From: a virus
Lineage: Duplodnaviria > Caudoviricetes
Length of the DNA stretch: 55,589 nt
Virus record (IMG/VR): IMGVR_UViG_3300021090_000026
Coordinates: 1-55,589 of that record
Strand: one strand, 5' to 3'
The position numbers were made by a program, and so were the translations under genes. Positions 23,530 to 44,132 of the stretch are shown here, piece after piece; position 1 is the stretch's first letter; every line of letters starts with the position of its first letter. The notes under the pieces are model-generated. The model worked only from the letters and a program-made list of their open reading frames with translations, did not search any database and was not told the origin of the DNA.

Positions 23530-24343
23530 TTTTCTCTAAAGACCTCATCCTCTCACGGAAGAAATTTCGGGGAAGATCTCCGAGGAAATCATCGCCGAGG
23601 CCCGGAAACTGGTTAGTCTCCAGGAAGTGGAAAGAACCATCATCGCAGAGGATGTAGTCGTTTCCACACACGTCCAACCCGAAGTGGGTTGCGACCTTAC
23701 GAGAATGCTCGATCATTTCGATCGGAACATTCTTCGCGTTCATTTGCACGTTCTCTCCTCCCGGAGAGTTCTTGATCCACGACTCTTCGTGGACAGTTTC
23801 GATGAAGAAAACTTCCTCCTCGATGTGGAGGATTCGGACCGATCGACCCACGAAGAAGGGTTGGATAGTCGCTTGGCCGGCCCACTCCATGAATCCAATT
23901 CCTGGCCGGAAGAGAACTTTACCCTCGCCCGAATGTTCGTTACCGAACTTGACGACGGTTCCGTTCTTTGGGCTCCACCCGAAATAGTCTTCGTTCTTCA
24001 TGAGATCCTGCCAGGTTGCCACCACGCAAGAATCGTTTCCGAAGAATCCTTGATCTATACACTCCTGAGCGACGACATGCCGATCGACCATTCGAAGGAG
24101 CGTCTTGGGATCGGGCCAACATGGCAGGGAAGAGAGAATTTTGAGTAAGCTGACAGTCCGGTCGGTGTCAGGATCCGCAGCGTAATAGATTCCGCCCTTC
24201 CACTCCTGGTACATTCCCTCGAGCTTGAATCCTCCCTCGATAGCACTTGCCCGTCGAGGGTTCCGAGAGAATCCCCAGTCCGACGTGATGGCAAGCTGAC
24301 CCACCACCGAGAGCTGACCTGACATGAAGATTAGTGGTTTCAA
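23477..24343 (-). CDS. ATP-grasp (RimK-like) ligase
   Basis: 'VVKFG..HSGEGKVL','IQPF','FGLDVCGNDY..FLETNQFPG'. Confidence 0.8.
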   Translation of the reverse strand: MKPLIFMSGQLSVVGQLAITSDWGFSRNPRRASAIEGGFKLEGMYQEWKGGIYYAADPDTDRTVSLLKILSSLPCWPDPKTLLRMVDRHVVAQECIDQGFFGNDSCVVATWQDLMKNEDYFGWSPKNGTVVKFGNEHSGEGKVLFRPGIGFMEWAGQATIQPFFVGRSVRILHIEEEVFFIETVHEESWIKNSPGGENVQMNAKNVPIEMIEHSRKVATHFGLDVCGNDYILCDDGSFHFLETNQFPGLGDDFLGDLPRNFFRERMRSLEKIVAGDENVQRSTVLPTS

Positions 24344-24594
24344 AATTCTGCTCCAAGAAAGCTAACGTGCTCCATCTTGAGCAGGACGCGGGCTATGTAG
24401 TAGACCCATCCTTTCTTTCCGCAGGTTGTCATGACCTTGATTGACGCTGATGTTTCATCGTCTATCACAATGAGAATATCACCGTGGACGACTCGAGCGA
24501 TCTCTTTTCCGAGCTCCCTGTCCCAAATGACTAGAGAATAGTCACGGTTGGTATATTGAAGGACCTCACCACGTTTCAGATACGTTTCGAGCAT
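24340..24594 (-). CDS. SH3-like miniprotein
   Basis: 'VVHGDILIVID..VMTTCGKKGWV'. Confidence 0.65.
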   Translation of the reverse strand: MLETYLKRGEVLQYTNRDYSLVIWDRELGKEIARVVHGDILIVIDDETSASIKVMTTCGKKGWVYYIARVLLKMEHVSFLGAEF

Positions 24595-24620
24595 TTAGCC
24601 CTTTCAATAGATATGAAGTT

Positions 24621-24857
24621 TCAGATTAGATGGATAGAACGAAGTCGTGAACTTAGAACCCATCCGAGTCCTGTTTCACCGGTCGACGAATCGACCCAGA
24701 GAACATACGTCATTGGATATCGAGTATCCAATTGTTCGTCTAATTTGATACAGGTAGAATCTTTACGAACGAAGATAGATTCATCGCGAGGGCGAGCTCT
24801 GTTTGGAATTCTGCAGACACGATCTCCGCGAGTCATGATGAAGATGTCATTCTTCAT
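24621..24857 (-). CDS. SH3-like miniprotein
   Basis: 'RGDRVCR..VLWVDSSTGETGLGWV'; ATGA overlap. Confidence 0.6.
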   Translation of the reverse strand: MKNDIFIMTRGDRVCRIPNRARPRDESIFVRKDSTCIKLDEQLDTRYPMTYVLWVDSSTGETGLGWVLSSRLRSIHLI

Positions 24858-25333
24858 CGATGAAACTCCAAAGAGGAAATCATCGATTTGCAGGTTATTT
24901 CGACCTGGGCCGCTGCCTTCGTGTCCCCTTCGCAGACGAAGGTCCAAAAACATTCGTTCTGCGGAATTTTTGCCGTAAAGAACAGGGAAGAACTTCCATC
25001 TGGTCGGCTCTTCAACACCCACGTTGCCTGCAGTTCTCCTAAACGACCACCGATCCACTTCGTGGCAAGACCGACGAGCTCATCATGATGAGCGATTCCA
25101 TCGGATGTCAATTCACGTTCTTCTCCACAAATCTTGTAGACCGAAACTGTCATCGGACGAGATCCAACGTTCATCAAGCTCGTACCAACGATCGTCGAAC
25201 CTTCCGTGAATTGCCAACCAATGCCCGGTGCTTCGAAACTCCAATCGTCTCCCTGGACCGTCTGTGGCATGTACGTGAATCGGGCGCATCCTAGATATAC
25301 GACCATGAGTGCGACGAGCCCAAGTTTTTTCAT
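24854..25333 (-). CDS. Putative lipoprotein
   Basis: 'MKKLGLVALMVVYLGC' lipoprotein-type signal. Confidence 0.65.
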   Translation of the reverse strand: MKKLGLVALMVVYLGCARFTYMPQTVQGDDWSFEAPGIGWQFTEGSTIVGTSLMNVGSRPMTVSVYKICGEERELTSDGIAHHDELVGLATKWIGGRLGELQATWVLKSRPDGSSSLFFTAKIPQNECFWTFVCEGDTKAAAQVEITCKSMISSLEFHR

Positions 25334-26178
25334 CCGTACACCCGAACGCATTCGAACATCGTGTTGTCGTGGATTTCGAGAACTTTCGGAATTGACCCGT
25401 CGGGCTCGACCTGGTATCCCCCGGCAAGGTTCCAGGCGACCGGCATTTCCAGCGCTTTGAGCCCATCGAAGACGATGGCATCCCGCATGCGAAGTTGCTC
25501 AGTCGTCAACCATCCTCCATAGGGATCGTTGATGTGAGGATCGGCACCGGCTTGGTACAGGACGATGTCGCATTCTGACATTCCTGCTACGATCAGCGGT
25601 AGCTCTTGGAAGAACTCGACTACTTGCTCAGCTTCAGTGTACTTTTTCCCGCCCGTGTAGTGTTTGATCCAAGCCTGGGCACCAAGCTTTTGGATGATAT
25701 TATCCGTTCCATTGCCGTAATGCATGTCGAGATCGAGGATCCCGACCCGGCTGACTCCCATTTCTTTCGGAGCGAGGGCGGTCACCATCAATCCGTTGAA
25801 GGTGCAAAATCCCTCTCCCGAATAGTAACCAGCATGATGGAATCCAGAACACGGTGCTGCGACCGCAGATTTCGTTTTGATCGCATACTTGGCTGCTGAA
25901 AGCATCGCTCCCGAAGTATAAGGGAGAGACATCGCAACATCGAGAGAACAGTTTCCAAATCCGTTGGCAGTCGAACCTGTTAGGACGTTATCGACATAAT
26001 CGAGATCATGAGCCCGAGCGAGCTCTTCAAAAGAAACGGGGACGGGTTCGATGATTTCGATTGCGAACTTCTGTTGCCAGGATTCGACCACCTTCACCGG
26101 TTTTGCCGCGCTGGGTGAAGCGCTCTGAGAGTCTGCCACCATCTTGGATGAGTAGAAAACGGGGATGGCGGAAGGCAT
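25330..26178 (-). CDS. Histone deacetylase-family (Zn-dependent) amidohydrolase
   Basis: 'GFHHA','GFCTFN','ILDLDMHYGNGT','YQAGADPHINDP','LAGGY'. Confidence 0.92.
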   Translation of the reverse strand: MPSAIPVFYSSKMVADSQSASPSAAKPVKVVESWQQKFAIEIIEPVPVSFEELARAHDLDYVDNVLTGSTANGFGNCSLDVAMSLPYTSGAMLSAAKYAIKTKSAVAAPCSGFHHAGYYSGEGFCTFNGLMVTALAPKEMGVSRVGILDLDMHYGNGTDNIIQKLGAQAWIKHYTGGKKYTEAEQVVEFFQELPLIVAGMSECDIVLYQAGADPHINDPYGGWLTTEQLRMRDAIVFDGLKALEMPVAWNLAGGYQVEPDGSIPKVLEIHDNTMFECVRVYG

Positions 26179-26204
26179 TAATTTCTAATTCCTGTTACTA
26201 GATT

Positions 26205-26233
26205 ATTATAATACACGCAAACTAAAGTTTCAT
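26205..26233 (-). promoter_or_regulatory. Promoter ATGAAA-N17-TATAAT
   Basis: Member of repeated promoter family; upstream of HDAC operon. Confidence 0.65.
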
Positions 26234-26565
26234 CACGTGACAATTTTTCTGGCCCGTTTGTTTGTTGGGGAGAAAAATCCTCGCATGTCTTCCTTCAACG
26301 CCTTATCAATGTTCTTGGCGTGTTTGTAGGTGATTGTGTGAAGGTAGAACTCTGTCACACTACCGTCAGGTAGCAAAAATGACCACACGTACACCTTACC
26401 GGCGCCGGTAGTCTTGATTGATCTCTTGCTAGTTTCTTCTAAGGGAATTAGAACATTCCCTGCATCGAGCTCTAAAGTTGTCCCTTTCCGAAGGAAGGAA
26501 CAGGGCTTTTGGAGAGTTACTGGCTCTCCTTTATCCCATACACCACCGGAATCTTTTGATTCCAT
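26233..26565 (-). CDS. Hypothetical protein (SH3-like pattern)
   Basis: 'LDAGNVLIPL..FLLPDG'. Confidence 0.6.
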   Translation of the reverse strand: MESKDSGGVWDKGEPVTLQKPCSFLRKGTTLELDAGNVLIPLEETSKRSIKTTGAGKVYVWSFLLPDGSVTEFYLHTITYKHAKNIDKALKEDMRGFFSPTNKRARKIVT

Positions 26566-26650
26566 TCGTCACCGGTCCAATATCGTATGAGTCCTAGCGT
26601 GGGGGAGGCTCACCTCCCCCACCATATCGTGTGGCATTTGCCGGTGCTGA

Positions 26651-26767
26651 CTAGCTTCTGAAGAAGCGATTGCGAACCGTTCGGATCGCCAGGTCGAGTG
26701 AGCGAGAGACGATCACCGTGATGACGGCAACGGTGACGCTACGAGTCAGTTGTTCTTTGAGAGTCAT
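26651..26767 (-). CDS. 38-aa hydrophobic peptide (not in ORF track)
   Basis: MTLKEQLTRSVTVAVITVIVSRSLDLAIRTVRNRFFRS; RBS AGGAG, own promoter, downstream hairpin. Confidence 0.55.
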   Translation of the reverse strand: MTLKEQLTRSVTVAVITVIVSRSLDLAIRTVRNRFFRS

Positions 26768-26784
26768 GATTAGCTCCTGAGTAA

Positions 26785-26813
26785 AAAGTACAATGTTAGA
26801 TGTTACGTTGCAA
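26785..26813 (-). promoter_or_regulatory. Promoter TTGCAA-N17-TACTTT
   Basis: Twin of 19422-19450. Confidence 0.55.
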
Positions 26814-27072
26814 GTTCAGATATCGTTTCGAAACCCTGGGGGTGGTCCTTGTTCCACGCGCAAACCCATCCAAACTTCCCATGGAAGAGAACGAGCCAGC
26901 TGTGCAACACTTCTCCACCGTATCGTTGACTTCTTTCAACCTCTTCTATCCAGACCACGTCGTCGAAAAACAGAACGACATCGCCGACTTCCAATTCTCC
27001 GCAATACGTTCCGCTGTTGTTTTGCGGATACTCGTAGAGCCACTGCGCAAGAACGGTGCAAAGGATCTTCAT
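26803..27072 (-). CDS. SH3-like miniprotein
   Basis: 'LEVGDVVLFFD..LVLFHGKFGWV'. Confidence 0.65.
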   Translation of the reverse strand: MKILCTVLAQWLYEYPQNNSGTYCGELEVGDVVLFFDDVVWIEEVERSQRYGGEVLHSWLVLFHGKFGWVCAWNKDHPQGFETISELAT

Positions 27073-27335
27073 GCGATCCTAGATCGGCGCACTTTTTCGA
27101 GAACTCCGATTCGTCCATCGGGTGACAGGACGATCTCTTCGAAGACTTTCGAAAATGTTCGACCGGCGAACTCTGACTTGACCGTTCGTCCTCGACGAAG
27201 AGCCAGGAAGAGGGACCCGATTGGATAATCGTTTTTCCCGGAGGGAAATGACACTACAAATCGCGGGTACTTCTCGTTGTACTCGTCCTCAACGACGATC
27301 TCCCTCGTCTTCAGCACGTCGACATCGTCCACCAT
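27069..27335 (-). CDS. SH3-like miniprotein
   Basis: 'YPIGSLFLAL..VLSPDGRIGVL'; RBS GGAG. Confidence 0.65.
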   Translation of the reverse strand: MVDDVDVLKTREIVVEDEYNEKYPRFVVSFPSGKNDYPIGSLFLALRRGRTVKSEFAGRTFSKVFEEIVLSPDGRIGVLEKVRRSRIA

Positions 27336-27347
27336 GAAAACTCCTGC

Positions 27348-27599
27348 CTAGATGATCTTTCCCAATTCTGACGCTGCGACACTCGGTATTACAACGCATC
27401 CCGCACCCGGAACGATGATAATTTGGCCCATCATCTGGCCGAATGTCGTCGGCTCTATGAAAATGACGATGGACTCTCGCTCAACCCGACCGGAGTTCTT
27501 GATATCTTCATTGAATCCACGATGGGACACGGAAACAAATAACCACGGAGCTCTCACTCGGATCAAATCTCCTTTTACGGGATCTCGTCGCGAACTCAT
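27348..27599 (-). CDS. SH3-like miniprotein
   Basis: 'VKGDLIRV..IVIFIEP..IIVPGAGCVVI'. Confidence 0.6.
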   Translation of the reverse strand: MSSRRDPVKGDLIRVRAPWLFVSVSHRGFNEDIKNSGRVERESIVIFIEPTTFGQMMGQIIIVPGAGCVVIPSVAASELGKII

Positions 27600-27856
27600 G
27601 ATACGACTTCGTCCACCCAACCCAAGAGTTTGATGTATCCGATCGTGGTATTGTAGAGGACGAAGGCTACCCAAGACGTTCGTGTCCCGAGCATGAAAGG
27701 ATCCGAAAGCACTACTACCTGGTCTCCCACAGAGAGTGCACCCTTTTCGGTAGAACTATTGTGTTCGAACCATCTGGCCCTGCCGAGAATGACGATGTCG
27801 CCCTGCTTGAAGCAATTCTGCTTGGGTTCGTAGGGGTAGCTGATGGGATACATCAT
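27596..27856 (-). CDS. SH3-like miniprotein
   Basis: 'FKQGDIVIL..LSVGDQVVVLSDP..VLYNTTIGYI'. Confidence 0.65.
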   Translation of the reverse strand: MMYPISYPYEPKQNCFKQGDIVILGRARWFEHNSSTEKGALSVGDQVVVLSDPFMLGTRTSWVAFVLYNTTIGYIKLLGWVDEVVS

Positions 27857-28089
27857 TGATGTTCGAGCTTGGGAACGATCTGTTCCTCTAGAACCTTCTT
27901 GAGCTCATCGTGATCGATCGGACAGGAAGCGATAGCGATGCACTTTCCAAAATCGATTCCGAACCGGCGAGTTTCGTCCCACGACTTGACCTCCATCGTT
28001 CCGAGAGACTTTCCCGGACCGTAGATGACGCGGACTCCCGTCCACCCCTCTGAGAATTTCAGGAATGAGATATCGAGTTCTTTATTCAC
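27853..28089 (-). CDS. Hypothetical protein
   Basis: Coupled ORF in array. Confidence 0.55.
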   Translation of the reverse strand: MNKELDISFLKFSEGWTGVRVIYGPGKSLGTMEVKSWDETRRFGIDFGKCIAIASCPIDHDELKKVLEEQIVPKLEHQ

Positions 28090-28092
28090 GAC

Positions 28093-28371
28093 TTACTCTA
28101 CAACTTCGAAGACATTATGCATCGGTTGGAACGTGATGTACATCGCAACTATTCCTTTGGAGATCAAAAATTGACCGAACCCGAATCCTGGAAGCGGACC
28201 TTCGAAGTTCATTTTCGTCAGAACAAGAAGAACACGTCCCTTGGGGATCGTGAACAAGGTCGTACCCGCGCAAAAGGTAGCTTCCACCAATAGACGAACG
28301 ATCTGCCCGGGATAAAGATCGTCAACCATGCATTTTCTGCTCAAATCAATTCCTGGAGGAGAAGGCAACAT
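28093..28371 (-). CDS. SH3-like miniprotein
   Basis: 'LYPGQIVRL..IPKGRVLLVL..FLISKGI'; start uncertain. Confidence 0.6.
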   Translation of the reverse strand: MLPSPPGIDLSRKCMVDDLYPGQIVRLLVEATFCAGTTLFTIPKGRVLLVLTKMNFEGPLPGFGFGQFLISKGIVAMYITFQPMHNVFEVVE

Positions 28372-28616
28372 CCGACTCCTCGGGATGTCAGAAGAATGAT
28401 GATCCTCTCTTCTCCCCGGGGCCCGCTGTATCCGAGAACAGCGAAGTGTTCCTTTTCAGGAACAACGATTCTTTCTCCCGACTTCGTGGTCAGAAGGACC
28501 GTTTTGGTCGTTGCACAAAGTTCGGGAAGTAACTTCAGAAGGGTTTCGAAGACGAGGCAAGCGCTCGGTGCGAGGAATTTATCGAACCGATCGACGATGA
28601 AATCATGAACATTCAT
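28341..28616 (-). CDS. SH3-like miniprotein
   Basis: 'VPEKEHFAVLG..LLTSRGVG'. Confidence 0.55.
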   Translation of the reverse strand: MNVHDFIVDRFDKFLAPSACLVFETLLKLLPELCATTKTVLLTTKSGERIVVPEKEHFAVLGYSGPRGEERIIILLTSRGVGCCLLLQELI

Positions 28617-28863
28617 AGAAGTAATCCGTAATCCTCTTCCTGAGTTCGTAGAGGTAGAAGTACGAGTACCCTTCGTTGGTGAGAACTAACCAAGATCTTT
28701 CTCCGAGCACATCACCGATCGCAGGTTCGAAGACGACCACAATCTCTCCCTCGGAGAGCCTATGGATTCCTTTGCACGGAGACGTGGGAAGATCCCATGT
28801 CCATTGGCTGAAAACGTCGTCCGAGTCGAGAGCTTTCGCCTTGAAAATCCGAACTGTCAACAT
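28603..28863 (-). CDS. SH3-like miniprotein
   Basis: 'LSEGEIVVVFEP..LVLTNEGYSY'. Confidence 0.6.
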   Translation of the reverse strand: MLTVRIFKAKALDSDDVFSQWTWDLPTSPCKGIHRLSEGEIVVVFEPAIGDVLGERSWLVLTNEGYSYFYLYELRKRITDYFYECS

Positions 28864-29138
28864 AGTTCGATGAATCTGCGAGAGGGATTCCATCGACCTC
28901 GGACGGTGAAGAACAACACGCTCATTCTGTTCGAAAGAACGACCGTTCCCATTCCTCGCAAGTTAGGAATCTCGCTGGGAATGTATTCTTTCACGATGAA
29001 AATCAGACCGGGAGATACTCCCGAGTGTTTTCTATAGTGGCCCAACCAGGAGTCGTACTTTGGTTCAAACACCATCGTGTGCCTGATTAATTTCCCTACG
29101 AAGGGTGCAGTCAAAAGATCCCAACGAGACGGAAGCAT
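28857..29138 (-). CDS. Small beta-rich hypothetical protein
   Basis: 'VSPGLIFIVKE'; TGATG overlap. Confidence 0.55.
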   Translation of the reverse strand: MLPSRWDLLTAPFVGKLIRHTMVFEPKYDSWLGHYRKHSGVSPGLIFIVKEYIPSEIPNLRGMGTVVLSNRMSVLFFTVRGRWNPSRRFIELC

Positions 29139-29521
29139 CAGAGCAGCGGAAGTTCGCCCGTGATGGGATCCAACTTCTCAGCCTCGTCTGGACCGAATGC
29201 TGCGCACGTTAAAGTCGCTACACCATGGAATTCTGTCTTTCCAGAATCGATGATGTGACACACTTGTATGCCTGCCTTCCGAGCCTTGTTCATCAGCTCA
29301 CCGAGCTCTTTCTCAGAATTGACGCTCACGGTGATCTTAGCAAATCCCTCTTTGAACCACCGTTGCTCTGCAGCAGTGAGATTGATTTCCATCCTGGACG
29401 GATCATTCGATGTGTTACGATCGGAAAGGAACTTCATGGACGCATGCGAAGCCTGCGCACACATCTTTCCCTTTCGCATCAAAAGATCTTTTCTAATGAC
29501 GATAACTTGCTTAACACTCAT
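29138..29521 (-). CDS. pth2: Peptidyl-tRNA hydrolase, Pth2 type
   Basis: 'KQVIVIRKDL.MRKGKMCAQASHAS','KITV','DSGKTE..TCAAFGP..DPITGELPLL'. Confidence 0.92.
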   Translation of the reverse strand: MSVKQVIVIRKDLLMRKGKMCAQASHASMKFLSDRNTSNDPSRMEINLTAAEQRWFKEGFAKITVSVNSEKELGELMNKARKAGIQVCHIIDSGKTEFHGVATLTCAAFGPDEAEKLDPITGELPLL

Positions 29522-29531
29522 TTTCTATGGC

Positions 29532-30783: not shown

Positions 30784-30797
30784 ATCGGTATCGTCTC

Positions 30798-36823: not shown

Positions 36824-36831
36824 CGAATGAA

Positions 36832-37524: not shown

Positions 37525-37602
37525 TAGACTACGCTACGGAGGTCTGGATTATCGATCCACAGGACCCGTCTACGGGTGAGACGAAAGACCATCATGTCAC
37601 CA

Positions 37603-37875: not shown

Positions 37876-38147
37876 ACCGATGTTCCGATAAAGTATTTGG
37901 TCGTGAACACGATCTTTCCTTCAGGGGAGATGACCATGTAGACCATTCCTCCCTTGATATCCCACGAACGACCGCCAGCGATCCGCTCGAAGAAAGTGCC
38001 ATCGTTACGAAATTCATCCATGATGATGACGAAGTCGGACGCATTCCGAGAGATCCAGAAATCGTGGGTATGATATCCGACACGGCGGATGTTAGACACG
38101 CTGTATCCACCCCATGGACTGACAGTTCTGACAAGATCGTAGATCAT
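37872..38147 (-). CDS. SH3-like miniprotein
   Basis: 'DFVIIMD..MVISPEGKIVF'; start chosen at MIYDL. Confidence 0.55.
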   Translation of the reverse strand: MIYDLVRTVSPWGGYSVSNIRRVGYHTHDFWISRNASDFVIIMDEFRNDGTFFERIAGGRSWDIKGGMVYMVISPEGKIVFTTKYFIGTSV

Positions 38148-38376
38148 TTCACCATCTCGAACATGTCGGAGGCTGACACGAACACCTCTCCCGCAGGAGA
38201 AGGAGGCTGTTCCAAATGACGTCACCGTCGAAGCAGATTCCACGCCACACGCCGAGTCAGAAAAATGGTGCCCTTGGGATATCCGTTTCCCACGTGGAAT
38301 CCGTAGTGGAAGAACTTTCCTGCGATTTCAACGTCTTCGTGATGGATATCGATTGAGACTCTAGAATAAGCGAGCG

Positions 38377-38562
38377 TCATTTGTAGATCTGATCAAAGAG
38401 TTTGAACATGTCGAAGAAGTAAATCTGCCCCGCCGGGGTGAACCCGTAGAACTTCAACTCGTGATAATTTTGAGCGTAGACGGGTTCATCTATGATGAGA
38501 ACGGCACCGAAAAAAGCATGTTGGATGAAATCTCCCCTTTTGTACCTCAAAATTCGTTCCAC
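38377..38562 (-). CDS. Small beta protein, paralogue of 39224
   Basis: 'KRGDFIQHAFFGAVLIIDEP'. Confidence 0.6.
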   Translation of the reverse strand: MERILRYKRGDFIQHAFFGAVLIIDEPVYAQNYHELKFYGFTPAGQIYFFDMFKLFDQIYK

Positions 38563-38798
38563 CAGTCGCTCTCATGCCATCCGCCCAGAATCCAACCAGT
38601 TCTACCGTCACAAAAGAGAAGAAATGCGCAGAATTCCTCTCCATCGATGGAGCGCACCAGAGTTTCCTTCGCCAGAACCAAGACCGGTTCCCCGCAGACA
38701 GCATTGTACGAGTGCTTCAGATTTCTTCCCACGATGCAAAAAACGTTCCAAAATCCCCTTCCGGGAAGGGGATACACTCCGCCGACCATGGGTATCAC
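38547..38798 (-). CDS. SH3-like miniprotein
   Basis: 'VGGVY..AVCGEPVLVLA..LLFCDGRTGWI'. Confidence 0.65.
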   Translation of the reverse strand: MIPMVGGVYPLPGRGFWNVFCIVGRNLKHSYNAVCGEPVLVLAKETLVRSIDGEEFCAFLLFCDGRTGWILGGWHESDWWNEF

Positions 38799-39043
38799 AA
38801 GATCTCCTCGAAACGAACGGGTTCATAGCGACGCAACCACCCGATATCACCGTTCACCATGACGAGAAACATGCGTTCGCTCTGCCTCCAACCGACAGCG
38901 AGGACGACACAACGATCCGGGCTTTCCAATTCGTAGACCTTCGGCCAGACGGTCTGATCATCGTTACTGAAGCTCTTCCACAAGAGCCACGGGTAACCAT
39001 GACCGAGGAGCTTGTAGATCCCACCGACCTTCAGATTGGGCAT
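38795..39043 (-). CDS. SH3-like miniprotein
   Basis: 'LKVGGIY..CVVLA..LVMVNGDIGWL'. Confidence 0.65.
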   Translation of the reverse strand: MPNLKVGGIYKLLGHGYPWLLWKSFSNDDQTVWPKVYELESPDRCVVLAVGWRQSERMFLVMVNGDIGWLRRYEPVRFEEIL

Positions 39044-39044
39044 G

Positions 39045-39236
39045 TCAATCTCCTACCCTCACTCGAACGACACGCGATATCCCCCATCGCAAGACCTCTC
39101 CCTTTTCGGACATGACCCAACACGTCGAATTGAAAGAGTCTTCCAAGATCAGGGCCACGTTGGGTGCCCGTTCTTTGTAGGATATTCCGGATGTATAGAC
39201 CCAAACTTCACCTTGCAAGAACATCAATCTATCCAT
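39045..39236 (-). CDS. Small beta protein (WVxSEKG subfamily)
   Basis: 'ALILED..WVMSEKGEVLRW'. Confidence 0.6.
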   Translation of the reverse strand: MDRLMFLQGEVWVYTSGISYKERAPNVALILEDSFNSTCWVMSEKGEVLRWGISRVVRVRVGD

Positions 39237-39457
39237 CTGATCCTGTTGATCTTCAACCAAAGAATGGTACCAGTTCTCTCGGCCAAACAGTGGAACTCAT
39301 GGTACACGATCACTTCTCTATCGTAGAGAGCACGTTCGATGATGATCGGTTCATCGAGCACGAGGAGAGTGCCAAAGAACTTGTGTTCGATCCGATCACC
39401 AATGCAGAGAGCTCGGGTCGACCTACGCAGGACGGGCTTGCGAAAGAACGAAAGCAC
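39224..39457 (-). CDS. Small beta protein, paralogue of 38377
   Basis: 'IGDRIEHKFFGTLLVLDEP'. Confidence 0.6.
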   Translation of the reverse strand: MLSFFRKPVLRRSTRALCIGDRIEHKFFGTLLVLDEPIIIERALYDREVIVYHEFHCLAERTGTILWLKINRIRWID

Positions 39458-39655
39458 CTATGTTTCGTCCCCGAGTGGAGTGCGCTTCTTATAATCTAGA
39501 CACCATTGCATGATCCTTCCCTTTTCGGAGAGAACCCAGTACCACCCTTCATGGTTGGGCGTATCATCCAGCACCAGCGCGAAGATGGGTCGCTCGCGGT
39601 TGATGTAATTTCCGTTCACGTGCCGATAAACGACACCCTTTCTAAAATAGTTCAT
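39458..39655 (-). CDS. Small beta protein (WVxSEKG subfamily)
   Basis: 'ALVLDD..WVLSEKGRIMQW'. Confidence 0.6.
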   Translation of the reverse strand: MNYFRKGVVYRHVNGNYINRERPIFALVLDDTPNHEGWYWVLSEKGRIMQWCLDYKKRTPLGDET

Positions 39656-39852
39656 TCGACTAACTTCCGGCAACCCTCTATGAGAAACCACGACTTGATC
39701 TCTCCCATATCGGTCAGAACCCACCAGCGCTTGTCGTGAGTCCGGTCCCTTCCAAGCACGAGGACGTACAGAGACGCGTTGTCATCTTCGGGGCGAAGAT
39801 GCTTATAGACGAAACCGGTGAAAACATTTCCGGGACAGAATCTCACGGGCAT
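39652..39852 (-). CDS. Small beta protein (WVxSEKG subfamily)
   Basis: 'VLVLG..WVLTDMGEIKSW'. Confidence 0.6.
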   Translation of the reverse strand: MPVRFCPGNVFTGFVYKHLRPEDDNASLYVLVLGRDRTHDKRWWVLTDMGEIKSWFLIEGCRKLVE

Positions 39853-40070
39853 TTCACAGCTCCACCGAAGACGACACCCACACCGAACCGGCTCATGACG
39901 AGCGCCACTCCCGATGGATTCAACCACGGGCTCGAAGATTCGAATCGTCCAAGGACGAGCACAGGTTCACCAACATTTAGAACCCCAACATGTGCACCGC
40001 AGGACAAGTAGTCCCTCGGCGAATATTGGTAATGAGAGCTTTCCAAGATAAGAGACATGTAAGGTACCAC
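39843..40070 (-). CDS. SH3-like miniprotein
   Basis: 'LNVGEPVLVLG..LVMSRFGVGVV'. Confidence 0.65.
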   Translation of the reverse strand: MVPYMSLILESSHYQYSPRDYLSCGAHVGVLNVGEPVLVLGRFESSSPWLNPSGVALVMSRFGVGVVFGGAVKCP

Positions 40071-40076
40071 GATATT

Positions 40077-40105
40077 ATTTTACCATGGGATCCACACAGG
40101 TTCAA
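40077..40105 (-). promoter_or_regulatory. Promoter TTGAAC-N17-TAAAAT (TGG extended -10)
   Basis: Repeated promoter family. Confidence 0.7.
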
Positions 40106-40207
40106 CGAAAGGAACGTCAGAGAATTTCTTTGGGTGGCGGAAGAGCGTCCGCGATCTTATCGATCGTCATGACGGTTCAACTTACGAGAGAGAAAAGTTA
40201 GTTCGCT

Positions 40208-40531
40208 TCAGATCTTCGGGAGCTGTGCTTTGGCACTCGTGGCGAAGTGGATCACTTTGTCCAACCAACGAAGAGCTTCTGGAGTGTTTGCGTTAGCGAC
40301 GGCTGCCTGGACCTTCTGCGCAGCATCGGCCGCCATGTTGATATCGGCCTTGAATTTATTCAGGGCGCCCGGAGCAGGGAGCCCGGCGGAAGCTGGAGGA
40401 GGGGTGCGCCCGGAAGCTCCGGGTGGAAGCGGCGGAGGACCGCCCATTCCCTGCGAAATCTCTTCTTCGAGGAGCTCGATGACGAGCCTGCGGAGGTCGG
40501 AGATACCCAATTCACTCTTCTTCGTCTTCAT
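40208..40531 (-). CDS. Hypothetical protein with 'xxDLRRLVxE' leader
   Basis: 'ISDLRRLVIELLEEE', Pro-rich linker; TACTTA at 40543-40548. Confidence 0.7.
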   Translation of the reverse strand: MKTKKSELGISDLRRLVIELLEEEISQGMGGPPPLPPGASGRTPPPASAGLPAPGALNKFKADINMAADAAQKVQAAVANANTPEALRWLDKVIHFATSAKAQLPKI

Positions 40532-40582
40532 GGTGCTACGGATAAGTAGTAGTTCTCATCTCGATGCTAAACGAAAAATCAG

Positions 40583-41500
40583 TCATTCGAATAAGCCGGG
40601 ATCGACAACGACAAAGTCGCCGGTTGCCCGTCGGACCATGAAATTACCGGTGTGGAGATCGTCCCACATCATGCCCGCCTCGTCAAGAGCATGCAAAAAC
40701 TCAACGAACTCCCGAACCTTGCGAGACGGATGTTTACCAGCAAGGCTCTTACGACCAAGAGTCATGGGAACGATCTCCCGTCGAATGGCTTGGGTGATCT
40801 CGTTTTCGAGATACGATCCAATGCCTCTCATGTTCGTGAGAGCTCTATCGAGAAGGGACTTGAGAGCCATGAGCGTGAGCTTTTCGGCAGCAGCTTTCTC
40901 TAGAATAGGCACAACGACACCAGTGTAGACCTTACGAATTTGGTCGTCTGAGATTGATCCCATCCGAGAAGCGGAGGCGATGATGCTCTCCTGCGCATCG
41001 AAGTCCTGCAAAAACATATCGATTCGACCTGGTGGAAGTTTCCACTCGTATTTGGTGTATTGGAGATCGTGTTCGAGTGCCGCGGGCATCGGGTCTAAGA
41101 GCTCCATCAGAGTTCCGTAGATCATGCTCAAACCTTCGTGGAATTGAACTTCGGTTTCGAAGGTGTCAATGAGCTCCGGAAAGTGTTTAGCGTACTTTGG
41201 GTCCATCATGCGGGCGAAGTCGACGAAATCGATCATGGCTTTCTGTTCGTTTTGTTCGACAGAGTACCGGGCGACGCAATGGCGATCCTTGTACAGGACT
41301 TCCTTGACCGTGTTATATGATCCCGATCCCACAGTTGAGTTGCCACGTTCGCCGCTAGGGATCGGAAATATTCCGATGTGAGCCAAGGCAACCTCGACAG
41401 CGTCTTTAGAACCGGTACCCCAACGGTGGAGGGTAGACTCCTCTCCCTGCTCAAGGAGTGATCGAACTAGAACCTTCAGTTCGGTGAGATGTAACTTCAC
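40583..41500 (-). CDS. Protein kinase-like protein with N-terminal leader
   Basis: 'VGSGSYNTV','LMELL','DLHTGNFM','VVDPG'; TATTTA at 41505-41510. Confidence 0.75.
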   Translation of the reverse strand: MKLHLTELKVLVRSLLEQGEESTLHRWGTGSKDAVEVALAHIGIFPIPSGERGNSTVGSGSYNTVKEVLYKDRHCVARYSVEQNEQKAMIDFVDFARMMDPKYAKHFPELIDTFETEVQFHEGLSMIYGTLMELLDPMPAALEHDLQYTKYEWKLPPGRIDMFLQDFDAQESIIASASRMGSISDDQIRKVYTGVVVPILEKAAAEKLTLMALKSLLDRALTNMRGIGSYLENEITQAIRREIVPMTLGRKSLAGKHPSRKVREFVEFLHALDEAGMMWDDLHTGNFMVRRATGDFVVVDPGLFE

Positions 41501-41536
41501 GAGTTAAATAGGGGCGGGGCGGGCCCCGTTCTTCCG

Positions 41537-41842
41537 TTACAACGCTTCTACCCCATCGAACGGGGCCAGGGCCGGGGCCTGAAGTATCTGACAGCCGGAA
41601 CAGTCCATTGAACAGAGTCCGAGAGAGCTGATGACCAAGACCTCCCGGTACGGCTCGTTCTTCACGGGAAATTCGATCTCTGGCTCCCAAGGATCGGACA
41701 CCACCACAGCGACACCACTGGGAACAATTTCTATGCACCGGTGATTGCACCGGAGATGAACCTCTAGGATGTGAGCCATTGTGTAAGGTTTGAAGCGAAC
41801 GACGTCACCGGGTCTAAGGTCTTTCAACACATCTCCTGACAC
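41537..41842 (-). CDS. SH3-like miniprotein
   Basis: 'LRPGDVVRF..AVVVSDP..LVISSLGL'. Confidence 0.65.
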   Translation of the reverse strand: MSGDVLKDLRPGDVVRFKPYTMAHILEVHLRCNHRCIEIVPSGVAVVVSDPWEPEIEFPVKNEPYREVLVISSLGLCSMDCSGCQILQAPALAPFDGVEAL

Positions 41843-42038
41843 AAGTAGAACGCAACCATCCGATTCCCAGATGCGTCAGAACGAGGACGTAGGGATCGGA
41901 GACCCACAGCTCCTCACCGGTTACCAGGATGATCATCGCACCGTCCCTGGGAAACAATCGACCGAGGTACTTTCCGCCGAACCACAACGACACGGACTCT
42001 TGCAGAAAAACAACGTCGCCCTTTACAAGATCTTTCAC
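41814..42038 (-). CDS. SH3-like miniprotein
   Basis: 'LVKGDVVFL..LVLTHLGIGWL'. Confidence 0.65.
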   Translation of the reverse strand: MKDLVKGDVVFLQESVSLWFGGKYLGRLFPRDGAMIILVTGEELWVSDPYVLVLTHLGIGWLRSTCVRRCVERP

Positions 42039-42238
42039 TTCAGTTCCTCGAAACGATCATCCATCCATGTGGAGGGCAACGATCCGCAGCCATGTTTAGA
42101 AGAGAGCATAGTGTAATACTTTTCCGACGACAGGATCACCAACACCGAACCCACCGCCTGCCGGATCCAGCAACCTTGAAACTCGATGAACACGCTTGAC
42201 TTCGTTCGAACGATGTCCCCCGAGAAGAATTTTTTCAT
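42035..42238 (-). CDS. SH3-like miniprotein
   Basis: 'FSGDIVRT..VGSVLVILS..MLSSKHGCG'. Confidence 0.65.
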   Translation of the reverse strand: MKKFFSGDIVRTKSSVFIEFQGCWIRQAVGSVLVILSSEKYYTMLSSKHGCGSLPSTWMDDRFEELK

Positions 42239-42435
42239 AGCCTTTTGAAACGATGAAACCGCCCACCCTTGCCTTTGGCAAGTTCAACGGCGATCTTGTG
42301 GAGCTTCTTCCGGTTGCGGAAGACCTTACCTTCTCGGAAGTAAAATCCATCCCCCAGGCAGACCATGTAGCAAGATCTTTCCGGATCGTTGGAGTCGTAC
42401 CTGATGATGTCACCGACCTTAAGTTCTATCCTCAC
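42235..42435 (-). CDS. Small beta protein
   Basis: 'LKVGDIIRY'; GTGA overlap. Confidence 0.5.
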   Translation of the reverse strand: MRIELKVGDIIRYDSNDPERSCYMVCLGDGFYFREGKVFRNRKKLHKIAVELAKGKGGRFHRFKRL

Positions 42436-42671
42436 CGCAGGATCCGAATCGGTGTGACGTTGCGCATGTTTTTCGTTTCGAACGTGCTTCGAATGACGCG
42501 GCAATTCTCCATGAGGGTGAAGACGATCTTGGTGTCAACATCGACAACTTCGACCTGCAGGCACGTGAGAATGAAGTTCCTTCGAGCGTGGGCAGGAAGA
42601 TGGCTGAACATCTCGTGGGTGTAATCGGGCCCGTAGCTGTCTCCCGGTTCGAGATCCATGTAAGTGCTCAT
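42432..42671 (-). CDS. Small beta protein
   Basis: 'DLEPGD'; coupled ORF. Confidence 0.5.
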   Translation of the reverse strand: MSTYMDLEPGDSYGPDYTHEMFSHLPAHARRNFILTCLQVEVVDVDTKIVFTLMENCRVIRSTFETKNMRNVTPIRILR

Positions 42672-42904
42672 AGAACAGTGACCCCACGTCCAAGGGAGAC
42701 GGAAAGCCGACAGACTCCCACGCCGGAGAGCACGTGGTAGAAGGTGACGTCGCAGAGATCTTCGGCCAGGATTACTACTATCGCACCGATGGGCAGAACG
42801 ACCCATCCATCATCGTTCGATGGGTCGAGAAAAAGCTCATTTTTTACGTTCACGGCCCGAACGGTGTTCAAGCACAGGACGGTGCCGGGGGTAAGATCCA
42901 TCAT
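42668..42904 (-). CDS. SH3-like miniprotein
   Basis: 'LTPGTVL..LPIGAIVVILA..VLSGVGVC'. Confidence 0.65.
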   Translation of the reverse strand: MMDLTPGTVLCLNTVRAVNVKNELFLDPSNDDGWVVLPIGAIVVILAEDLCDVTFYHVLSGVGVCRLSVSLGRGVTVL

Positions 42905-43110
42905 AAGAGCGTCGCTCCCTCTAGGTTGTCCACGATCCCGACGAGGCACTTTCCGATGGAAGGAGCGAGGGCCTCGTAGACATTCCCAAAACCCTGTCTT
43001 TCTCCCAGGATCAGCACGACGCTTCCGACCGGGATCACGGTCCAGCCCCGCTCGCTCCACCCTGTGAGATTGGTCTCCAGGCGGACGACATCTCCGGAGA
43101 CCAATCTCAC
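42901..43110 (-). CDS. SH3-like miniprotein
   Basis: 'LVSGDVVRL..IPVGSVVLILG..ALAPSIGKC'. Confidence 0.65.
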   Translation of the reverse strand: MRLVSGDVVRLETNLTGWSERGWTVIPVGSVVLILGERQGFGNVYEALAPSIGKCLVGIVDNLEGATLL

Positions 43111-43418
43111 AGGTACGTGTATCTGACAGCCGCGACTCCGATCATGAGCACGAGAAGGCCCAGTCCGACGAGGGGCAGGGGGACGACGACCGGTTCCGGA
43201 GCGGGGTGCTTGGCGACGAACGCTGCGAAGATGATCTCGACCATCCCACGCGCCGGGAAGATCGATCCGTTGTCCAGATCTTCCAGCTCCTCCCGGGTGA
43301 AATCCGCGCGCATGAGGCAGGCAGTCTCCTCCTTCGTGAGCTCTCGTCCGAGCTTACGTTCCAGGACGAAGCACATCCCACCACGGTACATCTGGAAGCT
43401 CATCATCTTTCTATGCAT
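43107..43418 (-). CDS. C-terminally membrane-anchored protein
   Basis: C-terminal TM 'LPLVGLGLLVLMIGVAAV'. Confidence 0.6.
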   Translation of the reverse strand: MHRKMMSFQMYRGGMCFVLERKLGRELTKEETACLMRADFTREELEDLDNGSIFPARGMVEIIFAAFVAKHPAPEPVVVPLPLVGLGLLVLMIGVAAVRYTYL

Positions 43419-43423
43419 GATGT

Positions 43424-43804
43424 TTACCAGCTCACCTTGAGCACGCCGGTGGGGGTGTACTCGACAGTGTACTTGGAGCCCAAGATTTTTTGAATGACTC
43501 TCATAATGCACTCGAACGCCAGCTTCTGGTGGGTCGGATCGTTGTTGATCCACGGGCTGATGTACTTCGAAGGATCCATCGTGAACGATGTCTGCTTCGC
43601 ACCGATCGCGACCGCGGTGGGGATCACGTCGTGCTTCAGGTACAGAACCTGAGCCTCCACCACCTTCGCGCACATCAACGAGTGTTCGAAGTCTTCGACG
43701 AAGGTTTCGTGCTTCACACTTTCCAAAATGTCCTGCTTTTCCTTGCAACGCAGCTGGTGATCGGCGATGGCCTCGGGAGTCGTCATTGTGATCTTCATCT
43801 TCAT
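43424..43804 (-). CDS. Hypothetical protein
   Basis: RBS AAGGA; first gene after promoter; ends 'LKVSW'. Confidence 0.65.
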   Translation of the reverse strand: MKMKITMTTPEAIADHQLRCKEKQDILESVKHETFVEDFEHSLMCAKVVEAQVLYLKHDVIPTAVAIGAKQTSFTMDPSKYISPWINNDPTHQKLAFECIMRVIQKILGSKYTVEYTPTGVLKVSW

Positions 43805-43831
43805 TCCTTTCGATAACACGTTACCATTTTA

Positions 43832-43860
43832 ATTCTACCATCCGACCCATAAGGGTTCAA
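43832..43860 (-). promoter_or_regulatory. Promoter TTGAAC-N17-TAGAAT (TGG extended -10)
   Basis: Repeated promoter family. Confidence 0.7.
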
Positions 43861-44132
43861 CGCACTGAAGGGAGCTTCTGAATTCCAGCTTCGATGAGAG
43901 CGACACGCGAAGGTGCGGCGAGCACCTCCAGATCGGTCCCGACGTGGAGGCACCCGCGACAGAGCTGTCCGTCGTCTCCAATGAAGGAGATCGTAATCAA
44001 ATCACGGTGGAACTCTTCCATCTTCGAATAGAGGAAGATCTTCCAACCGATGCTGAAGGGAGTGATTCCACCGTGGCGCCTGTAGATCATACCAAACTTG
44101 AGATCCGTCGGTTTGATGAGTTGCAAAGTCAA
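43857..44132 (-). CDS. Small beta protein
   Basis: 'DLKFGMIY..FIGDDGQL'. Confidence 0.55.
   Translation of the reverse strand: MTLQLIKPTDLKFGMIYRRHGGITPFSIGWKIFLYSKMEEFHRDLITISFIGDDGQLCRGCLHVGTDLEVLAAPSRVALIEAGIQKLPSVR

Follow-up and report, generated by a model that had tools for sequence, protein, structure and literature searches.

The window analysed here, the whole stretch of 55,589 nucleotides, holds at least 18 neighbouring minus-strand genes (24340-43110) that are deeply diverged copies of one tiny protein, predicted to be an SH3-like β-barrel. The products of these 18 genes (family A) are 67-120 aa long. The ORFs had been described from sequence as small and coupled, and gene packing on this strand is indeed tight, with 4-base overlaps at 12 of 62 gene junctions and 1-base overlaps at 2 of 62. 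The members are listed below with their E values from leave-one-out (LOO) profile searches; "quoted" marks the five examples given in the sequence-only reading.

24340-24594, minus strand: 84 aa; LOO E 0.0074, above all 1,425 non-members; profile E 2.7e-17
26803-27072, minus strand: 89 aa, quoted; LOO E 0.055, above all non-members; profile E 7.1e-20
27596-27856, minus strand: 86 aa; LOO E 3e-4; AF2-modelled, with SH3-type neighbours
28093-28371, minus strand: 92 aa; recruited at E 6.4e-4; LOO E 0.051, above all non-members
28341-28616, minus strand: 91 aa, weakest of the 18; recruited at E 0.0083; LOO E 0.37
28603-28893, minus strand: 96 aa; LOO E 0.0018; profile E 3.4e-19
31974-32336, minus strand: 120 aa, N-terminal extension, has an outside ortholog; LOO E 0.029
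34266-34541, minus strand: 91 aa, quoted; LOO E 1.2e-7
36007-36252, minus strand: 81 aa, quoted; LOO E 2.2e-6
37603-37875, minus strand: 90 aa; LOO E 0.0081
38547-38798, minus strand: 83 aa; LOO E 0.0097; nearest paralog is the adjoining 38795-39043
38795-39043, minus strand: 82 aa; LOO E 0.055
39843-40070, minus strand: 75 aa, quoted, first gene after a promoter motif; LOO E 9.1e-4
41537-41842, minus strand: 101 aa; LOO E 5.6e-4
41814-42038, minus strand: 74 aa, quoted; LOO E 1.1e-5
42035-42238, minus strand: 67 aa; LOO E 8.4e-4; BLAST to 42901-43110, E 0.009
42668-43060, minus strand: longest ORF 130 aa (the public gene call, P0006, starts at an internal Met and has 78 aa); LOO E 0.0045; BLAST to 42901-43110, E 0.001
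42901-43110, minus strand: 69 aa; LOO E 7.5e-5

Family A membership and weaker candidates

All five quoted examples were found as minus-strand ORFs (34266-34541, 36007-36252, 26803-27072, 39843-40070 and 41814-42038). An HMM built from them scored four more array ORFs above the best of 962 reversed or shuffled decoys, and iteration on the window ended at 18 members. When each member was left out in turn and scored against 1,425 non-members (other ORFs plus the decoys), 16 of the 18 ranked above every non-member and 17 above every decoy, with E values reaching 1.2e-7 at best. The exceptions were 28341-28616, outscored by two non-members, one of them a decoy, and 38795-39043, outscored by one non-member (another array ORF) and by no decoys. 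The real seed recruited 11 ORFs, compared to 0-3 for each of 24 random five-sequence seeds put through the same pipeline. A six-frame profile search of the contig at E ≤ 1 returned exactly 18 places, all on the minus strand (24352-43104), and every recruit was a tiling minus-strand array ORF, none being off-frame or on the plus strand.

Pairwise BLAST gave only two links within the 18 members, and the best decoys were often reversed copies of members, as might be expected if the skeleton were a chance or compositional likeness among unrelated β-rich ORFs. This explanation was tested and is unsupported: the leave-one-out scores, the random-seed control and the strand and frame of the recruits all speak against it, and we regard it as highly improbable. 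Profile growth, leave-one-out and the random-seed control place the common skeleton beyond chance, and the 18 genes share a single common ancestor.

The other small ORFs of the array were compared with family A by BLAST, HMMER and hhalign. With hhalign, 11 of 38 scored above all 94 decoys, at probabilities of 30% or less. Trio B, pairs C and D and the possible distant members are:

39045-39260, minus strand: trio B, 71 aa, AF2-modelled; BLAST to 39458-39724, E 5.9e-8
39458-39724, minus strand: trio B, 88 aa; BLAST links to 39045-39260 and 39652-39927
39652-39927, minus strand: trio B, 91 aa; BLAST to 39458-39724, E 0.001
38377-38562, minus strand: pair C, possible distant member; BLAST to 39224-39457, E 9.4e-6
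39224-39457, minus strand: pair C, BLAST partner of 38377-38562
31091-31354, minus strand: pair D, possible distant member; BLAST E 0.001 to the C-terminal part of 32985-33731
32985-33731, minus strand: pair D, 248 aa; C-terminal third resembles 31091-31354 (BLAST, hhalign)
30798-31106, minus strand: possible distant member, 102 aa; best hhalign result, 30% over 54 columns, above 94 decoys
29977-30309, minus strand: possible distant member; hhalign above all decoys, 6%
37267-37524, minus strand: possible distant member; hhalign above all decoys, 5% over 60 columns
27348-27674, minus strand: possible distant member; hhalign above all decoys, 2%; skeleton by eye only

Neither BLAST nor profile comparison linked trio B to family A (39045-39260, probability 4.8%), and the profiles of pair C (3.4%) and pair D (18% over 48 columns) scored similarly low or modestly. 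The link of 30798-31106 to family A was not significant by HMMER (E 0.19), while 29977-30309 was the top non-member in 5 of 18 leave-one-out runs. No relatives of 32985-33731 were present in the viral and metagenome contigs scanned. The earlier proposal of about 30 skeleton-sharing genes is thus confirmed for fewer genes: 18 are demonstrably one family, and the remainder (trio B and 11 weaker candidates) have no demonstrated link. With trio B (39045-39927) and up to 11 weaker candidates the count could approach 30, but the sequences do not show it.

Predicted fold and charge

The AF2 model of 27596-27856 is all-β, with six strands (pLDDT 81.3, pTM 0.67). It was built from the 18-paralog alignment, and so is not an independent test of each member. 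In a VIA search of 48,161 PDB representatives, the top 50 matches were nearly all SH3, bacterial SH3b, KOW or EF-P-type barrels (Z 5.2-7.1), led by LytB (7pj3, Z 7.1, rmsd 2.8, 60 aligned), 2evr (Z 6.7), TagH (Z 6.6) and the lysostaphin SH3b (Z 6.3), although these Z values fall in a range that, by the tool's own guidance, may mean no more than a common arrangement. Foldseek returned nothing from the PDB at E ≤ 0.001. The ESM Atlas has a separate model of 27596-27856, whose neighbours carry SH3_3 or DUF4926, and the protein's best match in BFVD is titled 'SH3 domain protein' (E 0.018), amid many uncharacterised small phage proteins. For trio B, the AF2 model of 39045-39260 is a small five-stranded barrel (pLDDT 73.3) with KOW (DSIF, NusG) and Tudor (UvrD, PcrA) neighbours at Z 3.7-5.3 as well as YorP and SH3 neighbours, all at Z ≤ 5.3, and the Atlas model of 39458-39724, at a low pLDDT of 0.58, has the SH3-like neighbours DUF1918, TraI_2B and SH3-C_UBE2O (TM 0.55-0.60).

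Structure prediction, through the AF2 models and their neighbours, thus supports the SH3-like fold first assigned by eye, and family A is predicted to be an SH3-like small β-barrel. In contrast, the motif fails on sequence as the 'SH3 beta-barrel signature' it was taken for. Pfam and PHROG gave no consistent match for family A, no member was matched by the Pfam SH3 families, and the SH3_3 model had zero matches in the whole window even at E ≤ 10.

In the SH3_3 consensus a 'G..V.V' strand comes before a 'G.GW' hairpin, and family A resembles it in this order when the alignment is read by eye. Bacterial SH3b domains (Pfam SH3_3, PF08239) are also its best structural neighbours, and these (SH3b of LytB, NlpC/P60 enzymes, lysostaphin and phage endolysins, Z 6.1-7.1) would suit virion or cell-wall-directed modules that bind peptidoglycan, or that decorate or fill the particle. 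However, unlike SH3_3 domains, family A proteins are stand-alone, with no hydrolase fusion or evident secretion signal, and they matched the SH3_3 HMM at no threshold tried. None has an N-terminal hydrophobic segment, the hydrophobic maximum never being at the N-terminus, and a search for fused longer forms, itself weak evidence, found none. The genes also lie apart from the baseplate/tail module (1-15 kb, plus strand) and on the opposite strand. We consider such a role very unlikely.

Other small barrels offer a second comparison. VCH_CASS4, from a Vibrio integron cassette (3g1j; Z 6.1, 68 aligned to family A), and SPbeta YorP (2heq; Z 4.9 to trio B), on mobile DNA, are each a single small SH3-like barrel; both are single genes, not arrays, and have no sequence match to family A. 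T4-type myoviruses encode small early-region proteins predicted to form a five-stranded barrel of SH3 topology, and the 2025 report describes these as dispensable in the laboratory and of no known function (PMC12152347). Like family A, they are predicted small SH3-type barrels whose paralogy mostly escapes BLAST. In T4 the proteins number three, and all of them carry an extra C-terminal domain (PMC12152347), whereas here there are at least 18 single-domain copies in 19 kb. No sequence link between the two groups was found, PHROG and Pfam included, and the structural neighbours of family A are SH3 and SH3b domains, not Hfq or FeoA.

Could the family act on nucleic acids instead of binding defence proteins, as LSm, KOW or Tudor-like barrels that tune how phage or host mRNAs are transcribed, translated or kept stable? 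The KOW and Tudor neighbours of trio B point this way, as does PSHCP, the Tudor-like picocyanobacterial protein that the family A profile matches best among PDB sequences (6nnb, E 0.029), though neither that E value nor Z ≤ 5.3 is significant. The T4 early barrels of the same type are tied to mRNA stability through GoF(D25Y), but in their wild-type form they did not affect RNA (PMC12152347). Basic products make up 5 of 18 in family A (pI 7.8-9.4) and two of three in trio B. However, pI is below 7 in 13 of 18 family A members (4.5-6.8), which, with a hydrophobic maximum that is never N-terminal, suggests cytoplasmic proteins not typical of nucleic-acid binders, and the domains closest in structure to family A are SH3 and SH3b types that bind peptides or cell walls, not Sm or KOW. 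On balance, we find a nucleic-acid role unlikely, if worth keeping in view.

Sequence divergence and occurrence elsewhere

The conserved part of family A is four core strands plus a pair of glycine turns ('LxxGDhh', 'GxxVVVL' and 'LVLxxxGxGWh'), and column information is higher in predicted strands than elsewhere (1.78 compared to 1.46 bits, one-sided Mann-Whitney p 0.015). The hairpin turn is constant in length. The loops vary as strongly as had been noticed, with 11-34 residues separating the pair of conserved glycines and 7-23 separating the 'VVVL' and 'LVL' strands. Mean pairwise identity is about 19%, and no DNA-level repeats link the paralogs, again in line with the sequence-only reading. 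Paralog similarity declines with genomic distance (Spearman rho -0.20, permutation p 0.017) and the nearest paralog of several members is the neighbouring gene, which together point to local duplication.

In 1.84 billion protein representatives, a profile search matched a single stray relative besides the copies of the phage itself. P0018, on a 2,016-base contig from another data set, is an ortholog of 31974-32336 with 62% identity, and conservation runs along the whole barrel, loop residues included. Ten other records of large phages included one with a copy, and among 78 + 31 fetched loci none had one but the related phage contig L079, which has one member (E 9.3e-5).

Promoters, neighbourhood and possible role

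The DNA that carries the array is part of the genome of an uncultured, very large phage from freshwater sediment. Genes for PTH2 (E 6e-31), NUDIX (E 3e-21) and histone-deacetylase-family (E 6e-28) proteins are interspersed among family A. A sigma-70-like promoter motif, TGAAC-N14-TGGTAAAAT, has 6 matches in the window compared to 0.03 expected from shuffles, and five copies lie within the array region on the same strand as the genes:

44144-44171, minus strand: promoter motif, aligned with the other sites
43832-43859, minus strand: promoter motif, aligned with the other sites
40077-40104, minus strand: promoter motif immediately before the start of 39843-40070; shares 85% identity across 33 nt with the 36795-36827 site
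36795-36822, minus strand: promoter motif upstream of 36553-36777
33722-33749, minus strand: promoter motif overlapping the start codon of 32985-33731

The array might instead be a gene nursery, in which easy duplicates of a stable small fold drift under weak constraint, mostly without specific function. The low mean identity, the near-absence of the family elsewhere and the laboratory dispensability of the T4 analogues (PMC12152347) would all fit, and the loop divergence could reflect relaxed constraint instead of diversifying selection. However, all 18 reading frames are open, core positions are conserved, and the sole ortholog has kept its loops as well as its strands. Tight packing, 4-base overlaps and repeated promoter motifs argue for expressed genes. 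Contigs from a metatranscriptome library (29 at ≥ 99% identity, spanning 21 of 30 array bins) add weak support for expression, because DNA carry-over is not excluded. A nursery of this kind seems to us rather improbable.

The explanation that we favour, tentatively, is a lineage-specific expansion of one stand-alone small domain, within the plastic auxiliary-gene region of an uncultured myovirus of roughly 350 kb. Genes of the array would have duplicated locally and then diverged fast. Family A proteins would be cytoplasmic, non-enzymatic binding modules, the loops of every paralog holding a different host (or phage) macromolecule, and the paralogs may jointly help to take over the host or to counter its defences early in infection. 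We infer this role of diversified binders from fold, context and divergence pattern. It is compatible with a conserved core and variable loops, mostly acidic or neutral products, the lack of an N-terminal hydrophobic segment, and an auxiliary-gene region with sigma-70-like promoters. The phage encodes its own sigma-like factor (17683-18702), which could read the promoter motif, so the motif is no proof of 'early' expression.

Expansions of this kind have a precedent in Bacillus phage G, which has about 35 zinc-ribbon copies in a lineage-specific expansion (Iyer et al. 2021, PMC7824862). Both are cases of a tiny domain at tens of copies in a very large phage, the domain being a zinc ribbon there and an SH3-like barrel here; the text of that paper mentions SH3 once, for a single polymerase-associated gene. 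T4-type hyperplastic regions carry variable ORFan genes between core modules, with repeated promoter (PeSL) motifs (PMC4122927). No conserved stem-loop partner, as in PeSL, was seen beside the promoter copies here, but the array region resembles these hyperplastic regions in its grouped genes, punctuated by a repeated sigma-70-like motif.

Homology among the small array genes

The sequence-only reading had claimed about 30 genes of SH3-like miniproteins at 24340-44132, and the five example ORFs that it quoted are present as written. An all-versus-all BLAST of the 481 ORFs of at least 40 aa gave six weak pairs within the array, two of which join members of the family described here. We therefore turned to profiles, searching the 481 ORFs together with reversed and shuffled copies (1,443 sequences, of which 962 were decoys). 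An HMM built from the five examples ranked four more array ORFs above the first decoy. Iteration, accepting only matches above the first decoy, ended at 18 minus-strand ORFs at 24340-43110 (family A); one early recruit, 35582-35800, was removed after it failed the leave-one-out test (E 5.4).

In this test each of the 18 members was removed, the model rebuilt and the removed member scored. Sixteen of the 18 scored above all 1,425 non-members and 17 above all 962 decoys (E 1.2e-7 to 0.37). The top-scoring non-member was itself a small array ORF on the minus strand in 15 of the 18 runs. To control for drift, we applied a more lenient version of the procedure to 24 random seeds of five sequences each, taken from reversed array ORFs or from ORFs on the plus strand of this region; these seeds drew in 0-3 sequences, compared to 11 for the real seed. 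An independent six-frame profile search (alignment A2) returned the same 18 places and no others at E <= 1. As the leave-one-out test, the random seeds and the six-frame search all agree, the skeleton picked out by eye reflects a real protein family. Adding to the profile the public proteins P0013 and P0018 and the ORF of locus L079, on the related phage contig G002, recruited zero further window ORFs.

The earlier count of about 30 genes was not confirmed: 18 genes are homologous and three more share the predicted fold type, and a number near 30 lacks sequence support. The three (trio B: 39045-39260, 39458-39724 and 39652-39927) are linked by internal BLAST matches (E 5.9e-8 and 1e-3). Profiles of trio B, of pair C (38377-38562 and 39224-39457) and of pair D (31091-31354 and the C-terminal part of 32985-33731) recruited no additional window ORF. 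Profile-profile comparison with family A (hhalign) gave probabilities of 4.8% for B, 3.4% for C, 17.9% for D and 1.2% for a further group, E, so that uniting family A and groups B-E in one superfamily is without sequence support. Two ORFs placed by eye in the trio alignment (A4), 36832-37062 and 35364-35603, are not significantly related to trio B. Among 38 other small tiling ORFs, 11 beat all 94 decoys against the family A profile, with a probability of at most 30% in every case. We can defend a tally of 18 homologous genes and three with a predicted fold of the same type, plus at most some 11-15 in which the skeleton is recognised by eye or through a weak score.

Family A products are 67-130 aa as longest ORFs (the 130-aa ORF is called as 78 aa in public data), with a mean pairwise identity of 19% over 83 match columns. 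An N-terminal 'L..G[DE]hh', a central 'G..VVVL.[ED]' and a following 'LVL...G.Ghh' are conserved. The loops are variable, as first noticed by eye: two of them span 11-34 and 7-23 residues, with a constant final hairpin turn. Mapped onto the model of member 27596-27856, columns in predicted strands carry 1.78 bits compared to 1.46 bits elsewhere (p 0.015), the most informative being G44, G73, V47-L50 and V66. The pI is below 7 for 13 of the 18 products, and in a crude test the hydrophobic maximum was N-terminal in none of the 18. Also in keeping with the earlier observation, we found no DNA-level repeats linking the paralogs. Their similarity drops weakly with genomic distance (rho -0.20, p 0.017) and for several members the nearest paralog is the adjacent gene, so the sequences would fit growth of the array by local duplication. 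Gene junctions in the region include 4-base overlaps (12 of 62) and 1-base overlaps (2 of 62).

Predicted fold and possible function

An SH3-like barrel (SH3, SH3b, KOW, Tudor or LSm) was taken to be five or six bent antiparallel strands in about 60-70 residues. The predicted models of family A, with six strands, and of trio B, with five, have this architecture at modest Z, in agreement with the fold first assigned by eye. The AlphaFold2 model of 27596-27856, made from the 18-paralog alignment, is all-beta with six strands (pLDDT 81.3, pTM 0.67). Foldseek of this model against the PDB gave no match at E <= 0.001, in a list that holds many SH3 and SH3b entries. Exhaustive structure comparison against 48,161 PDB chains (VIA) found 73 chains that reach Z >= 5, with none reaching Z >= 8. 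Of the best 50, almost all were SH3-type barrels, at Z 5.2-7.1, which is middling by VIA's own calibration.

VIA neighbours of the family A model
LytB (7pj3): Z 7.1, rmsd 2.8, 60 aligned
NlpC/P60 N-domain (2evr): Z 6.7
TagH C-domain: Z 6.6
Lysostaphin SH3b: Z 6.3
Integron cassette protein (3g1j): Z 6.1
Also present: many eukaryotic SH3 domains; EF-P domain I

The fold call is drawn from the uniformity of this neighbour list, not from any single match. For the same member, the neighbours of the ESM Atlas model (pTM 0.64) include hypothetical proteins from viruses and Acidobacteriota (TM 0.63-0.73), DUF4926 and SH3_3-carrying proteins. In BFVD the top match is an 'SH3 domain protein' (E 0.018), followed by many uncharacterised phage proteins of 70-90 aa. 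For trio B, the AlphaFold2 model of 39045-39260, from a five-row alignment with two rows added by eye, has five strands (pLDDT 73.3) and KOW, YorP, Tudor and SH3 neighbours at Z <= 5.3; the weak Atlas model of 39458-39724 (pLDDT 0.58) has SH3-like neighbours. As a prediction from these models, family A has good support for an SH3-like small barrel, which is also plausible for trio B. We are highly confident that the array holds a diverged paralog family of at least 18 genes whose products combine a conserved core with variable loops and have a predicted SH3-like barrel, and that these genes are tightly packed on one strand among auxiliary genes.

What these proteins do is a more tentative matter. 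Family A proteins could act in the cytoplasm as binding modules that differ in their targets and serve host takeover or counter-defence, much as the sequence-only reading had proposed in calling them a binder library; we put the chance of this at somewhat less than even. [quoted passage not shown] Set against it is the mostly acidic character of the products, and we regard it as unlikely. Less likely still is that the array is a by-product 'nursery'.

As described in those passages, the T4 proteins have an N-terminal barrel, a linker and a C-terminal domain, whereas alignment and model make family A members single barrels with short tails. In the PHROG search the 18 members gave no consistent match. 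Bacterial SH3b domains resemble family A in fold only. SH3_3 is a targeting module of secreted or cell-wall-acting proteins, in contrast to the family A ORFs, which stand alone at 67-120 aa and whose hydrophobic maximum, by the same crude test, is never N-terminal.

In very large phages the majority of genes are small ORFans without a known function. Here about 18, possibly 25-30, ORFans of one phage are reduced to a single scaffold with a clear split between core and loops, which makes them tractable with one structure, a single pull-down design and a single pooled screen. If the copies are target-specific binders, they would amount to a natural collection of small, stable binding domains from which new factors of host takeover or counter-defence could be drawn.

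Distribution and catalogue searches

The 56 small ORFs of the region gave no meaningful match to Pfam (E <= 0.1; no SH3-clan family) or PHROG (E <= 0.01). The 18 members share no Pfam family even at E <= 10, with no SH3-clan family among the matches, and no PHROG at E <= 5; their PHROG matches fall in six families, each from one member (best E 0.17). In six frames of the window, Pfam SH3_3 (PF08239) had zero matches at E <= 10, with a search control positive in 13 of 14 genomes, and the DUF4926 model likewise gave no match to the window at E <= 10. The top PDB sequence match of the family profile was PSHCP (6nnb), a Tudor-like picocyanobacterial protein (E 0.029 over 38 residues).

Against 1.84 billion representative proteins the profile had 14 matches at E <= 0.001, of which 12 are the window's own products. 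Another, P0012, is a low-complexity repeat protein and was discounted as spurious. P0013 (156 aa) carries two tandem copies of the domain on a 926-base contig, and no further relatives of it were found. A word-indexed search gave P0018, encoded on a contig of 2,016 bases and 62% identical to 31974-32336, of which it is an ortholog. A weak search for fused longer forms of family A found none, and metagenome scans with the P0015/P0018 alignment of public proteins and with 32985-33731 returned nothing.

The HMM count that had been suggested for the genome and its relatives came to 18 places in the window and, among ten other large phage records searched whole, a copy in one. The copy is on the 33-kb contig G002, which additionally encodes a homolog of 40208-40531 at 63% identity; its family A match is a single 96-aa ORF adjoining a chaperonin-like gene. 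There was no match to the profile in LR756508.1 (484 kb), in Microcystis phage Mel-JY01, in Flavobacterium phage immuto_3-5A or in six of the seven IMG/VR records. Other genes of the window were also used to fetch loci: the NUDIX gene fetched 25 distant ones and the baseplate gene two, one of them 90% identical but 11 kb long. Among 31 later-fetched loci only L079 has a member, and the other 108 of all fetched loci have none above decoys. The 78 viral loci bearing a relative of the histone-deacetylase-family gene gave no BLAST match to array ORFs and nothing above decoys with the family HMM (9,617 ORFs), and viral contigs scanned with 40583-41500, 23477-24343 and 32985-33731 yielded no relatives either.

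At the sensitivity of these searches, family A appears close to private to this phage lineage. Leave-one-out scores were at most 20 bits, and paralogs this diverged would not reach significance in searches of a billion sequences, so the family may still exist elsewhere. Our verdict is of a real, uncatalogued, lineage-restricted expansion of SH3-like miniproteins.

We found no paper on a large SH3-like expansion in a phage; supplements might list some. Jumbo-phage expansions of small domains offer a parallel, such as the roughly 35 zinc-ribbon copies of Bacillus phage G reported in an excerpt of PMC7824862: here too one very large phage has 18 paralogs of one domain that is rare elsewhere (1 of 10 large records). 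With the small early barrels of T4, such expansions suggest a general, under-described feature of big phages. A bolder proposal is that arrays of SH3-like miniproteins have arisen again and again in very large phages as a fast-turnover binder repertoire, in which paralogs neutralise or redirect different host proteins, including those of defence, and array make-up helps to set the hosts. Family A would be one independent instance. We consider this proposal improbable as it stands.

On G002, the family A homolog lies beside chaperonin-like and GIY-YIG-like ORFs. Within L079 (1480-2213, minus strand) it is followed by a 148-aa ORF that ends, by eye, in an SH3b-like hairpin of the 'GWVYPYEI' type.

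Genome setting and expression signals

The window is one linear contig of 55,589 bases with a completeness of 16% (CheckV), from source runs labelled as freshwater sediment metagenomes. Because public contigs of up to 350,418 bases encode proteins identical to those of the window, the phage genome is probably about 350 kb. Bases 1-15,000 hold a myovirus baseplate and tail module on the plus strand, including a 615-aa wedge protein with about 31% identity to proteins from an uncultured 484-kb phage, Flavobacterium phage immuto and Microcystis phage Mel-JY01. Between about 16 kb and 47 kb the minus strand carries nearly all of the long ORFs, among them genes for a sigma-70 region-2 protein (17683-18702), a DNA methylase, a histone-deacetylase-family protein, PTH2 and NUDIX. 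The PTH2, NUDIX and PD-(D/E)XK-like genes are scattered among the miniprotein genes.

Recognisable genes of the array region
25330-26178, minus strand: histone-deacetylase-family gene (Pfam E 5.6e-28)
29138-29521, minus strand: PTH2 peptidyl-tRNA hydrolase (E 6e-31)
31324-31695, minus strand: weak PD-(D/E)XK nuclease match (E 3e-4, below cut-off)
32336-32803, minus strand: NUDIX hydrolase (E 3e-21)

Relatives of the deacetylase occur on 78 viral contigs (33-71% identity), of which many are longer than 100 kb and whose flanks are not syntenic; the gene seems to be an auxiliary one that large phages widely share. The 165-aa ORF 24854-25351 (minus strand) has by eye a lipoprotein-like start, a hydrophobic stretch and then Cys, with its KD maximum at residue 10. 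It is the sole obviously exported product of the region and has no Pfam match.

A sigma-70-like motif with an extended -10 element, TGAAC-N14-TG.TA.AAT, occurs six times in the window compared to 0.03 expected from shuffles.

Copies of the promoter motif
33722-33749, minus (gene) strand: within the array
36795-36822, minus (gene) strand: within the array
40077-40104, minus (gene) strand: within the array
43832-43859, minus (gene) strand: within the array
44144-44171, minus (gene) strand: within the array
50729-50756, plus strand: sixth copy

Four copies align well past the hexamers, and the starts of 36553-36777 and 39843-40070 lie at the right distance downstream of two copies. A generic scan was at chance, with 18 promoters compared to 16.4 expected and 20 terminators compared to 18.9. 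The five array copies are consistent with early expression from host-type promoters; as the phage also encodes the sigma-70 region-2 protein, either form of the polymerase may read the motif. T4-type hyperplastic regions carry repeated promoter cassettes, according to passages of PMC4122927. PeSL cassettes place an early promoter and a conserved stem-loop between variable genes; the array has the promoter part, whereas no common stem-loop was seen in the 70 nt upstream of five motif sites. In a metatranscriptome library from the same habitat, 29 contigs at >=99% identity cover 21 of 30 array bins and leave nine uncovered; these contigs, which carry neither strand nor timing, are consistent with transcription of the array.

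Several further features of the window were noted. The ORFs 40583-41500, 46527-47342, 45209-45706 and 40208-40531 (minus strand) have by eye a common N-terminal start, 'MKL.L.EL+.LVR..L', which may mark a second paralog family; where tested, they had no Pfam match. The right end (47600-55589) has a G+C of 0.55-0.63 compared to 0.43-0.51 on the left, and holds the paralog pairs 52448-52948 with 47658-48182 (E 1.8e-21) and 51626-51976 with 50358-50633 (E 4e-12). ORFs 2751-3386 (plus strand) and 53025-53570 (minus strand) are related (E 4e-11) and both match a 495-aa ORF of G002; together with 16157-16785 they appear by eye to resemble homing endonucleases. Finally, a 54-nt imperfect palindrome (43061-43113; 81% self-complementary, E 4e-6) lies at the junction of 42668-43060, 42901-43110 and 43107-43748.
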